From positions 11,314-75,313 of the forward strand of contig CAIVSY010000041.1 in assembly GCA_903908715.1 (NCBI GenBank): a DNA stretch of 64,000 bases, read 5' to 3'. This DNA is from an uncultured bacterium. Lineage in GTDB: Bacteria; Verrucomicrobiota; Kiritimatiellia; CAIKKV01; CAITUY01. Both the position numbers and the translations under genes were made by a program. Below the pieces are notes generated by a model. The model was not told the DNA's origin. It saw only the letters and a program-made list of their open reading frames with translations, and made no database searches. Below are positions 8,149 to 9,225 of the stretch, piece after piece (the stretch's first letter is position 1; every line of letters begins with the position of its first letter).

Positions 8149-9225
8149 TCACAGGAGCCCGGGATTCATCCTCCATATCTCCAACGCCAGCGCCGCGGCA
8201 AAGGCCAGCCATGCAAGGTACGGAAGGAGCAGCCACGCGGCAGACGGCCGAACCCGCCTGAACCGGCGGATCGTTTCCAGCACCAGTCCGACCAGGAGCA
8301 GGATTTCCAGGAAGGCCAGCCCGCCCAGTCGCCACGCGAAGAACAGCCAGCTCCACAGGGCATTCGCCGCCAACTGTACCGCGTACACCATCAGGGCGCC
8401 GCGCGCCGCGCGCAATCCGCCCGTCTTCCAGACCCGCCACGCGGCCACCGCCATCATTGTATAGAGCAGGCTCCAGACAGGCCCGAAAACCCATCCCGGC
8501 GGCGCCCATGGCGGACGCGCCAATTCCGCGTAAAAGGCGCCCGCCCGCGCCGTGGCGGCCCCGCCAACCGCCGCCGCCAGACAGGTGACCAGCAGGCACA
8601 CCAGCAGACCCAGGGCGGCGCGCCATCCCCGCCGGTCCGTGCCGGCGCCTTCCGCCGCACCGGGATACAGGTTCCACGCGGACATCTCGGCAAGCGATTT
8701 CCTGGACCGTTCCCGCACCGCCTGTTGTTCCCCGGAATAGCCCAGCGTAATGATCAGGACCGGCCGAGCCGCCGCGGGAATCGCCAGGATCTCGCGCACA
8801 CGCTGCGCATCGAACCATCCCAGCATGCAAGTCCCCAAACCTTCCTCCGCGGCCTGCAGGCAGAAATGCTCGGCGGCAATGGCGCAATCCATCATCGGGA
8901 ACGGCAGGTCCTGGAGCGCCGCGCCCACCCGCGCCGATGTACGGGCCGGCTCCGCCACCACAACAACCAGTACCGGCGCCTGCCGCGTGAAGTGATTCAG
9001 GGGTAATACCCCGCCGCTCGTCGCGGCCGCCACCTTTTCCTTGCGCACCGGGTCATCCACCACAATGAATGTCCACGGCTGGGAATTGCAGGCCGATGGC
9101 GCCTGGCGTGCCGCTTCCAGGCACCGCTCAACCTGTGCCCGCTCCACAGGTCGCGCCTCGTAACAGCGAACGCTGTGCCGCAACGCCACAAGATCCAGAA
9201 ACCGCTCCGTCCTTCCCTCTTTCAT
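8149..9225 (-). CDS. Nitroreductase-domain / TspO(MBR) fusion protein
   Basis: N-terminus [14 protein letters not shown]...[12 protein letters not shown] (nitroreductase fold). C-terminus [29 protein letters not shown]...LFFAWR (TspO/MBR tryptophan-rich 5-TM). Confidence 0.7.
   Translation of the reverse strand: [358 protein letters not shown]

Follow-up and report, generated by a model that had tools for sequence, protein, structure and literature searches.

The locus under study lies in a window of 64,000 nucleotides, i.e. the whole stretch of DNA that was analysed, and centres on a gene encoding a nitroreductase domain fused to a TspO/MBR tryptophan-rich sensory protein. The gene, its domains and its neighbours are as follows.

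7313..8053, minus strand: HEAT_2 repeat protein of 246 aa, the downstream gene (gene call and Pfam HEAT_2 in a near-identical contig)
8149..9225, minus strand: nitroreductase-TspO fusion CDS, 358 aa plus stop, ATG start (open reading frame list and sequence)
8152..8625, minus strand: TspO/MBR domain, aa 201-358 (PF03073, phmmer, AF2)
8209..8211, minus strand: W339 codon in PYLAW-LAF, invariant in 20 sequences and aligned to mouse PYLAWLAF
8473..8475, minus strand: W251 codon, invariant in the 20-sequence alignment and aligned to mouse 'APIW', counterpart of mouse W53
8626..8664, minus strand: inter-domain linker, aa 188-200, Pro/Gly/Ala-rich, ending in a juxtamembrane basic/aromatic G-W-R motif
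8665..9225, minus strand: nitroreductase-fold FMN oxidoreductase domain, aa 1-187 (Pfam, phmmer, Foldseek, AF2)
9166..9180, minus strand: R16-H-S18-V-R20, the N-terminal RxSxR motif, counterpart of RQSDR in 8cqt (alignment)
9231..9235, minus strand: Shine-Dalgarno-like GAGGA, 5 nt 5' of the fusion-gene ATG (read from the sequence)
9261..10223, minus strand: QueG-like cobalamin/2x[4Fe-4S] reductase core lacking the C-terminal HEAT domain, with a 35-bp gap to the fusion gene, which it precedes
10377..11087, minus strand: LTXXQ/Metal_resist (Spy/CpxP-like) periplasmic stress protein (Pfam)

The initial annotation had described a single open reading frame, and indeed positions 8149 to 9225 form one continuous frame of 358 aa in which both Pfam domains are found without a break; the strand is corrected here to minus. 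Its assignment of an N-terminal FMN-nitroreductase-like domain and of a complete, C-terminal 5-TM TspO domain is borne out by PF00881 (aa 16-163, E 1.8e-33, 116.5 bits vs a gathering score of 23.5) and PF03073 (aa 212-352, profile positions 3-145 of 145, E 1.5e-43, 148.4 bits vs a gathering score of 24), both of which score far above their gathering scores. The motif quoted there ([29 protein letters not shown]) corresponds to aa 237-266 of the fusion protein.

The closest structure of the reductase domain is that of the FMN nitroreductase BT_1316 of B. thetaiotaomicron (PDB 8cqt), which was matched by phmmer over aa 9-186 (E 3.3e-41) and was also the best Foldseek match (E 7e-12, TM-score 0.84 normalised to the target), and the AF2 model displays an alpha/beta fold with a pLDDT of about 85-93 across most of the core. 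The FMN-type motifs RxSxR, CNSQPW, GLGTC.LGWF and a C-terminal R-K pair are invariant or nearly so among the fused proteins and match 8cqt. At the level of single residues, R20 is invariant in a 20-sequence alignment of fused proteins, with R16 and S18 conserved to at least 90%, and the whole set of R16, S18, R20, N47, Q49, P50, W51, R175 and K176, which aligns with 8cqt, is invariant or at least 90% conserved. We take RxSxR to be the motif that typically binds the FMN phosphate in the nitroreductase superfamily, and the roles of NxQPW and of the C-terminal basic pair in FMN binding are likewise presumed from what is known of the family. None of the curated NCBIfam cut-offs for named nitroreductase subfamilies was reached (bits vs cut-off: BluB 79.3/150, RutE-type 46.1/152, NfsB 40.8/227, NfsA 36.5/223, FbiB C-terminal domain 38.7/249.55, SagB 20.3/78.4, Acg 25.3/199). 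BluB-like chemistry, considered on account of the NCBIfam match, was rejected, as the score of 79 bits stays below the cut-off of 150 and the best-matching stretch comprises aa 5-68 only.

The TspO domain is predicted to form five TM helices at aa 196-227, 244-273, 275-297, 301-325 and 334-353 (AF2, pLDDT 84-98), with which the hydropathy peaks agree. Its best PDB match by phmmer is mouse TSPO (2mgy, E 1.3e-22), and RsTspO (8e7x/4uc1) and BcTSPO (4ryi) were matched as well, while the score against the NCBIfam TspO equivalog of the alphaproteobacterial type (NF047825) was 102.8 bits and thus below its cut-off of 180. The invariant W339 aligns with mouse W143, is the counterpart of BcTSPO W138 and human W143, and is followed by the LAF motif; W251 presumably equals W51 in BcTSPO numbering. 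In BcTSPO, W51 has been implicated in the cleavage of PpIX and LAF has been placed between W138 and A142 (PMC12002307).

The two domains are connected by a linker of variable sequence and nearly constant length, the spacing from N185 to G206 being 16-21 residues in all 20 members. AF2 confidence is lowest in the 10-residue blocks over aa 171-200, with a pLDDT below 50 at 181-187 and 190-195, and the monomer model (pTM 0.52) yields no confident inter-domain geometry. A signal peptide was not found on the fusion protein, and the mean number of K+R amounts to 8.4 on the N-terminal side vs 3.7 on the side of the TM1-TM2 loop, which predicts an N-in orientation; for the same reasons a periplasmic reductase was rejected. 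The reductase is thus predicted from the sequence to reside at the cytoplasmic face of the membrane, with the TM1-TM2 loop that caps the ligand pocket facing the periplasm. Since the porphyrin pocket of TspO opens on the side of this loop (PMC12002307), the flavin site and the pocket mouth would lie on opposite faces, and direct hydride transfer to a pocket-bound porphyrin is therefore unlikely. The earlier proposal of a membrane-anchored redox system acting on tetrapyrroles thus stays plausible in general, but not in the form of a direct reduction of the porphyrin within the pocket, which the predicted topology makes geometrically unlikely.

The same architecture was recovered from independent assemblies in NCBI, ENA, JGI and Logan, in about 22-27 protein clusters of 58-100% identity, including a 100%-identical copy (P0122) on a public contig of 153,966 bp. 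The junction 'RK..SAWN.YP' is conserved among these proteins, the halves diverge in step (per-domain identities of, e.g., 77/76, 68/67 and 62/65%), and the fused proteins form one clade both in the NR-domain tree and in the TspO-domain tree. The annotation had named a frameshift or sequencing error as a possible cause of the fusion; as the frame is continuous and the fusion recurs in that many independent clusters, both a frameshift and chance are excluded. From this we conclude that the gene is genuine and single and that a narrow lineage of uncultured PVC bacteria inherits it undivided. The family itself is narrow, since among 1.84 billion representatives, searched exhaustively by HMM, just one full-length member was recovered, and only 2 of 185,579 GTDB species genomes, both of them PVC/Verrucomicrobiota MAGs, contain the fusion. 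Two variants, however, depart from this architecture. In the syntenic relative L090, the reductase is 77% identical and ends in a W/R-rich tail, with no TspO part or remnant, and variant P0027 has kept TspO but lacks most of the reductase, so that each half can persist alone. In addition, an HMM scan of the regions within about 8 kb of the closest stand-alone reductases, meant to reveal any TspO linkage in other phyla, detected a TspO gene at none of 78 loci.

Searches of the literature on TspO with nitroreductase, TspO fusions and architecture, TspO in PVC phyla and 8CQT returned nothing relevant, and none of the solved structures contains both a nitroreductase and a TspO domain, in agreement with the claim that the architecture falls outside the described TspO forms. 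These searches thus revealed no description of the pairing of nitroreductase and TspO, yet the theme is not unique, since a larger family from Planctomycetota carries, at that same TspO end, an unrelated NAD(P)-binding domain, namely a YbjT-like SDR, with or without DUF2867. The SDR-TspO family is far larger than that of the nitroreductase-TspO fusions (more than 120 clusters among the matches listed, some of them from Planctomycetota MAGs) and comprises proteins of 455-660 aa; P0235 and its relatives carry SDR domains (PF05368/PF13460, with or without PF11066) where the fusion protein has PF00881. Proteins of this kind appear in JGI under the name 'tryptophan-rich sensory protein/uncharacterized protein YbjT' and are uncharacterised, and the literature searched held nothing relevant on DUF2867 with TspO. 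A biliverdin-reductase-B-like identity of the SDR partner was considered and found to be unsupported, its PDB relatives being generic atypical SDRs only. In the TspO-domain tree, the TspO domains of the SDR fusions fall in different clades, from which we conclude that these fusions arose by independent events. This recurrence, with a structurally unrelated partner, speaks for TspO being functionally linked to NAD(P)H-dependent domains in the cytoplasm, and it is the strongest argument in support of a functional pairing.

The gene neighbourhood differs between subclades of the fused proteins and includes QueG-like/HEAT genes, a 76-aa ORF with an acylphosphatase, DUF302, TamB/URO-D and MipA/DinB. 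In the window, the QueG-like gene reaches 112 bits against TIGR00276, which is below the cut-off of 200, contains Fer4_16, and its product matches residues 34-287 of QueG (5d08), while the HEAT_2 protein has only generic HEAT/alphaRep matches in the PDB. A conserved unit of QueG-like gene, fusion and HEAT_2 gene, or a QueG gene that the fusion has split in two, was considered and dropped as a general explanation, the arrangement being restricted to the window's own subclade. A promoter/terminator scan located a promoter-like site at 11228-11200 and a terminator-like site at 7098-7083, after the HEAT_2 gene, and found no terminator-like site between 11087 and 7313 on the minus strand. These are weak hints of an operon, of which the LTXXQ/Metal_resist gene is possibly the first gene. 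An Rfam scan returned one tRNA only. With respect to tetrapyrrole genes, a single URO-D neighbour was found near the fused loci, and this missing context, together with the reductase without TspO in L090, weakens the case for an obligate coupling of the halves.

As to the biochemical function of the fusion protein, which we infer, we tentatively lean, at somewhat less than even odds, towards a cooperation of the halves in which TspO handles a hydrophobic ligand and the tethered flavoenzyme reduces this ligand or its product with NAD(P)H. In the protein, a nitroreductase-fold domain of the small BT_1316-like type, predicted to be cytoplasmic, is connected through a short, flexible linker to the N-terminal end of TM1 of the complete TspO domain. 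TspO might capture, hold or pass on its ligand in the membrane, most plausibly a tetrapyrrole, an oxidised tetrapyrrole product or a quinone-like molecule, and the flavoenzyme would act at the inner membrane surface. As the membrane would separate the flavin site from the mouth of the pocket, any coupling must be indirect, and it could proceed by hand-over of the ligand via the inner leaflet, by a diffusible reduced flavin or by an electron path through the protein. As dimerisation is obligatory in nitroreductases and also occurs in bacterial TspO, the fusion protein is probably a homodimer, and it may be part of the envelope or oxidative-stress defence.

A more specific version, which we regard as rather unlikely, holds that TspO has the flavoenzyme as its physiological partner in redox chemistry, which reduces either a bilin-like product of porphyrin cleavage by TspO or, via the conserved Trp-rich helices, the catalytic tryptophan radicals of TspO. 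The former would be analogous to biliverdin reductase, which follows heme oxygenase. As a point against a cooperation of the halves in general, the published porphyrin cleavage by TspO needs light or ROS, plus O2, and the paper makes no use of the terms NADH, NADPH, reductant or electron donor (PMC12002307). If this version were true, TspO would be half of a light-independent, NAD(P)H-dependent tetrapyrrole-processing oxidoreductase, the SDR-TspO fusions of Planctomycetota would represent a second solution to the same need, and stand-alone TspO, including mitochondrial TSPO, would also use a separate reductase partner.

The most serious alternative to a cooperation of the halves, although we consider it improbable on balance, is that TspO does no more than anchor the protein in the membrane and provide a scaffold for dimerisation, with its ligand binding being irrelevant. 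The reductase would then be a broad-specificity NAD(P)H:FMN oxidoreductase held at the inner membrane surface, with membrane-soluble quinones, nitroaromatics or other xenobiotics as its substrates. This reading would fit with the closest relatives of the reductase domain, which are soluble, separate enzymes of about 180-200 aa, widespread among anaerobes and including BT_1316, one of the nine B. thetaiotaomicron nitroreductase genes co-deleted in a study of drug metabolism, as well as with the reductase-only variant with its W/R-rich tail at the same locus in L090 and the absence of TspO linkage at the 78 stand-alone loci. The superfamily also offers a precedent for membrane anchoring in mammalian iodotyrosine deiodinase. 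However, a single helix would suffice as an anchor, whereas a complete TspO with all of its pocket tryptophans has been kept invariant across the clade, and an unrelated NAD(P)-binding domain has independently been joined to TspO specifically.

Less probable still is a sensor or regulator in which one half regulates the other, either because the flavin/NAD(P)H state reports the redox state of the cell to TspO and controls ligand binding or export, or because ligand-bound TspO switches the reductase on or off. The partner in the parallel SDR fusions is NmrA-like according to its Pfam match, and NmrA proteins act as regulators that sense NAD(P). A linker this short and uniform in length would also be suited to conformational coupling, and such a role fits the older notion of a 'tryptophan-rich sensory protein'. 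For TspO of Rhodobacter and of other bacteria, sensory or regulatory functions have been described (review PMC8243069). Against this, the reductase has kept its catalytic-type motifs in full, as active enzymes do, and neither an output domain nor a conserved regulatory partner gene was found at the loci compared.

That the reductase domain mainly feeds electrons to the adjacent QueG-like cobalamin/Fe-S reductase, with TspO being incidental in this genome, appears very improbable. The two genes are 35 bp apart on the same strand with no terminator between them, their adjacency is kept in L081, in L087/L088 and, despite the absent TspO, in L090, and a PF01613 flavin reductase gene is located nearby in L087, L089 and L090. 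The other subclades, however, have no QueG-like neighbour, and since the linkage is limited to one subclade with at least 74% identity, it is explained by shared recent ancestry. Finally, an artefact that joined two genes, be it a frameshift, a sequencing error or a chimeric assembly, is hardly conceivable given the unbroken frame, the conserved junction and the recurrence of the fusion across the four resources, its only support being the truncated or frameshifted look of the relatives P0019 (C-terminus) and P0025 (tail).

For decades there has been disagreement over what TspO/TSPO, a major target of drugs and of imaging, does biochemically, with proposals ranging from a sensor or a translocator to a porphyrin-degrading enzyme, and natural gene fusions are among the few sequence-based clues to functional partners. 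The nitroreductase-TspO pairing in this uncultured Verrucomicrobia-like bacterium is rare, unstudied and conserved. With the nitroreductase described here and the SDR in Planctomycetota, two unrelated NAD(P)H-binding folds are found at the cytoplasmic end of TspO in PVC bacteria, and both fusion types hint that TspO is linked to redox chemistry driven by NAD(P)H, a connection that is not discussed in the literature searched. The fusion offers a compact single-polypeptide system for a direct test of this link; if the halves are independent, the protein would still be a useful example of a membrane-tethered nitroreductase.

Compared with known systems, the reductase half is closest to the small stand-alone FMN nitroreductases of anaerobes represented by BT_1316/8cqt, with which it shares motifs, fold and about 42% identity over the whole domain, while its stand-alone homologues are 50-60% identical. 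Enzymes of the BT_1316 type are soluble, whereas the reductase of the fusion is covalently tethered to a polytopic membrane domain, and C35 and C122, which are invariant in the fused clade, have no counterpart in 8cqt. In the peroxiredoxin-nitroreductase of Thermotoga maritima (PDB 4eo3), a nitroreductase domain is likewise naturally fused to a module of stress defence, but this module is a soluble peroxiredoxin, the domains follow in the opposite order and a membrane domain is absent. Iodotyrosine deiodinase is also a nitroreductase-fold flavoenzyme held at the membrane, for which structural similarity was detected at low sequence similarity (E about 1e-9); it possesses a single N-terminal anchor helix, unlike the C-terminal, ligand-binding 5-TM domain of the fusion. 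With the TspO/MBR family (RsTspO, BcTSPO, mammalian TSPO), the fusion shares the five helices, the signature tryptophans, the PPxW loop, NxxWSxxFF and PYLAW, the LAF after the TM5 tryptophan being of the mammalian type, but it differs in carrying an enzymatic domain of about 200 residues on its N-terminus. The YbjT-like SDR-TspO proteins have the same polarity and logic, with a cytoplasmic NAD(P)-binding domain N-terminal to TspO TM1, belong to the PVC superphylum and contain TspO domains that are about 50% identical to those of the nitroreductase fusions, whereas their partner is a Rossmann-fold SDR and not a flavin nitroreductase fold.

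The initial annotation had described a nitroreductase and a TspO/MBR protein in a single ORF, and Pfam finds both domains in one frame of 358 aa, which starts with an ATG located 5 nt downstream of a Shine-Dalgarno-like GAGGA motif. The Nitroreductase domain covers aa 16-163 (E 1.8e-33; 116.5 bits against a gathering score of 23.5) and a full-length TspO_MBR domain covers aa 212-352 (E 1.5e-43; 148.4 bits against 24; profile positions 3-145 of 145); both halves are also matched by NCBIfam profiles. Since no named equivalog reaches its curated NCBIfam cut-off (TspO 102.8 against 180, BluB 79 against 150) and the scores for NfsA, NfsB, RutE, FbiB, SagB and Acg are far below theirs, the protein is a member of both superfamilies and of none of their named subfamilies.

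Features of the window discussed in the text.
1-6600: glycosyltransferase genes (GT2, GT4, Gly_transf_sug, GT1, GT10 fucosyltransferase-like) and ABC transporter, inferred from gene calls on a near-identical contig
6605-6997: lone ExbD gene
7313-8053 (-): HEAT_2 repeat protein gene
8149-9225 (-): fusion gene (NR-TspO)
9261-10223 (-): QueG-like cobalamin/Fe-S reductase core
14248-15342, 15421-15491, 22719-26009: dnaN, one tRNA, mnmE and mnmG (gidA)

The fusion is real and conserved, both halves look intact, and a short linker of fixed length joins them. Among 5.8 billion protein clusters searched, about 22, each roughly 335-385 aa long, combined the two Pfam domains (58-99% identity), and several end-of-contig fragments also spanned the junction. 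The fused relatives were assembled from different samples (NCBI, ENA, JGI and Logan), and a 100%-identical copy of the protein sits on a 153,966-bp public contig. When 20 members are aligned, conservation extends over both domains and the junction 'RK..SAWN.YP', the spacer from invariant N185 to invariant G206 comprises 16-21 residues of variable sequence in every member, and the identities of the reductase and TspO halves to the query run in parallel (for example 77/76, 68/67 and 62/65%). From the junction, the spacer length and these parallel identities we conclude that one gene has been passed on as a unit. A frameshift or sequencing error joining two genes, against which the initial annotation had cautioned, is ruled out, as is a chimera, by the same fusion in relatives, the conserved junction and the joint divergence of the halves, so that the probability of an artefact is negligible.

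The fusion is confined to a narrow lineage. An exhaustive HMMER search with the family profile against 1.84 billion representatives, one per 50%-identity cluster, recovered one full-length two-domain representative (the related protein P0011, 645 bits) and three fragments, and the remaining best 150 matches (≥150 bits) contained one half only each; this count covers total scores of at least about 150 bits, below which more distant fusions are possible. Two of the 185,579 GTDB species genomes (one genome per species) carry the fusion, namely a 'PVC group bacterium' MAG and an 'uncultured Verrucomicrobiota' MAG, and the other 78 loci returned were reductase-only. That the architecture lies outside the standard described TspO forms, as had been proposed, agrees with the literature searched, in which no description was found, and no solved structure with both domains was found either. 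Both domains are well known and their combination is already present in public databases, but it is unnamed and unstudied.

A neighbour-joining tree built on the reductase domain groups the fused proteins in one clade, inside which a few non-fused members are nested. The reductase-fused TspO domains again form one clade in the TspO-domain tree, where the sister group consists of TspO-only proteins with a basic N-terminal extension of 40-65 residues. One relative, P0023 (locus L090, 3465-4088), has a 77% identical reductase and no TspO half; its locus shares the gene order of the window (Peptidase_M24, LTXXQ, QueG-like, reductase), and tblastn detected no TspO remnant there. The protein ends in a W/R-rich tail, PPKWRWPWRRKGHQ, which might still bind the membrane. 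Another, P0027 (207 aa, JGI), runs from the first ~35 reductase residues straight into TspO, most of the reductase being gone through either a natural internal deletion or an assembly artefact. Because loss of either half has occurred, each seems able to persist alone. P0025 looks frameshifted at TM1, and P0030 (514 aa, NCBI), nested in the NR-TspO clade, carries a metallo-beta-lactamase-fold domain (PF12706/PF13483) N-terminal to the reductase, i.e. the same reductase lineage with another fusion partner.

The closest match of the reductase half (aa 1-187) is the Bacteroides thetaiotaomicron FMN nitroreductase BT_1316 (PDB 8cqt; phmmer E 3.3e-41, ~42% identity; Foldseek TM-score 0.84, normalised to the target). 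The FMN-type motifs R16-x-S18-x-R20, C46-N-S-Q-P-W51, G-L-G-T-C133-x-L-G-W-F and R175-K176 are invariant or nearly so, and we take their role to be FMN binding, as is usual in this family. Four cysteines of this half (C35, C46, C122 and C133, within window 8665-9225) are invariant in 20 of 20 fused proteins; in a comparison with BT_1316 alone, C46 and C133 are shared and C35 and C122 are absent. According to a drug-metabolism study, BT_1316 is one of nine putative or verified B. thetaiotaomicron nitroreductases that were deleted together.

The best PDB match of the TspO half is mouse TSPO (E 1.3e-22, 84 bits), followed by Rhodobacter TspO (60 bits) and Bacillus TSPO (44 bits). Its signature tryptophans are all invariant among the 20 aligned members, W251 corresponding to W53 of mouse and W339 to W143 of mouse and human TSPO; by TSPO numbering, W251 is presumably W51 of BcTSPO. 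A mammalian-type 'LAF' triplet, which in human TSPO enhances cholesterol binding, directly follows the TM5 tryptophan (window 8167-8226 (-), aa 334-353), the C-terminus closely resembles the mouse one, and some family members also contain a CRAC-like pattern, L-x-Y-x(3)-R. Because LAF has been placed between W138 and A142, W339 equals W138 of BcTSPO, which together with W51 adjoins a porphyrin methine carbon and is needed for PpIX cleavage (PMC12002307).

An AlphaFold2 model built on the 20-sequence alignment (mean pLDDT 83) shows two well-folded domains and five TM helices (aa 196-227, 244-273, 275-297, 301-325 and 334-353). Confidence is low for the inter-domain link, with a minimum in the blocks over aa 171-200, and at a pTM of 0.52 the model does not predict the relative placement of the domains. 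No signal peptide was found at the N-terminus. Averaged across the family, K+R amounts to 2.4 before TM1, 3.6 in the TM2-3 loop and 2.5 in the TM4-5 loop on one side, and to 1.6 in the TM1-2 loop, 1.0 in the TM3-4 loop and 1.1 at the C-terminus on the other. By the positive-inside rule, these sums (8.4 vs 3.7) predict that the protein is oriented N-in: the flavin domain would be cytoplasmic, with access to FMN and NAD(P)H, and the TM1-TM2 loop periplasmic. In the BcTSPO-hematin structure the vinyl rings lie deep in the pocket and the propionates point toward water, beneath the TM1-TM2 loop (PMC12002307), which would place the pocket mouth across the membrane from the flavin domain. Of the membrane-anchored redox system for tetrapyrroles suggested in the initial annotation, direct reduction of a porphyrin in the pocket by the flavin is therefore disfavoured, and indirect coupling remains compatible.

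The QueG-like gene lies 35 bp upstream and the HEAT_2 gene directly downstream of the fusion gene, and no terminator-like site was detected from the LTXXQ/Spy-like gene further upstream until past the HEAT gene. The QueG-like protein matches residues 34-287 of QueG (PDB 5d08) with a score under the QueG cut-off. It lacks the C-terminal HEAT-like domain of QueG. Possibly a QueG-type enzyme is split here into this gene and the HEAT_2 gene, with the fusion gene lying between the two parts; the HEAT_2 protein matches generic repeats only. This arrangement recurs only in the subclade of the window (loci L081, L087/L088 and L090, the last without TspO). In other subclades the neighbours are an overlapping 76-aa ORF and an acylphosphatase, DUF302, TamB and a convergent URO-D-family gene, or MipA and DinB. 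The 76-aa ORF (L082 937-1167, L089 5778-6008; subclade of P0006 and P0019) has no Pfam match, and its 8-bp overlap with the fusion gene start suggests translational coupling; the acylphosphatase gene lies 3' of the fusion gene, and L089 additionally has genes for an ECF sigma factor and an unknown protein of 570 aa just upstream. A PF01613 flavin reductase gene (L087 4953-5489, L088 3101-3637, L089 7406-7984, L090 4734-5291) occurs within one to two genes of the fusion or its reductase-only derivative in two subclades; the window has ExbD at the equivalent place. The URO-D gene (uroporphyrinogen decarboxylase family; L085 7126-8193) is the sole tetrapyrrole-related neighbour seen and may be due to chance. 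Since the neighbours differ and none of the 78 loci of stand-alone reductase orthologues has a TspO gene within ~8 kb, the neighbourhood supports no particular pathway. On a larger scale, the cluster of dnaN, tRNA, mnmE and mnmG indicates that the window is probably chromosome near the replication origin of a Verrucomicrobiota/Kiritimatiellia-like bacterium. The best named relatives of its MnmG are from Verrucomicrobia and Kiritimatiellia MAGs (~60% identity), and the glycosyltransferase region adjoining ExbD resembles a locus for cell-surface polysaccharide.

We infer a homodimer, since nitroreductases occur as obligate dimers and TspO of bacteria also dimerises. A hydrophobic ligand would be captured or handed on by the TspO half, and this ligand or its product would be reduced at the inner membrane surface by the flavoenzyme half, at the expense of NAD(P)H. 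Such cooperation of the halves is our tentative reading, at nearly even chances. It is rather unlikely that the TspO half serves as an anchor only, and a sensor or regulator arrangement is doubtful. Electron supply to the QueG-like enzyme, a neighbour in a single subclade, is highly improbable. There is a small chance that the reductase is the physiological redox partner of TspO, either reducing a bilin-type product or re-reducing tryptophan radicals; if true, stand-alone TspO proteins would have a so far unknown reductase partner, too. NR-TspO would overturn nothing, but through it the disputed biochemistry of TspO can be approached in concrete and testable terms.

Among the single-domain matches of the exhaustive HMMER search was P0235 (457 aa), which combines a C-terminal TspO with an NmrA/NAD_binding_10/Epimerase-type Rossmann domain in its N-terminal 300 residues. 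A search with P0235 gave more than 120 clusters among the matches listed (455-660 aa; Rossmann domain with or without DUF2867, then TspO). They make up a large, uncharacterised family (P0235, P0271-P0389) in which a YbjT-like SDR domain of the NAD(P)-binding type, accompanied by DUF2867 in some cases, precedes a C-terminal TspO; some members are called 'tryptophan-rich sensory protein [Planctomycetota bacterium]' at NCBI, and the JGI name is 'tryptophan-rich sensory protein/uncharacterized protein YbjT (DUF2867 family)'. The SDR part has weak, generic PDB relatives only, and the literature searched held no description of the family. Its TspO domains are ~50% identical to that of the window and fall into different clades of the TspO tree, from which we conclude that these fusions arose independently. 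Compared with the window protein, the polarity is the same, whereas the partner is an SDR/Rossmann domain instead of a nitroreductase. That two unrelated NAD(P)-binding folds became attached to TspO at the same end, both in the PVC superphylum, is the best argument available for a functional rather than accidental pairing. Within the broader group of TspO fusions to NAD(P)H-binding domains, which is equally unstudied, NR-TspO is one rare variant.
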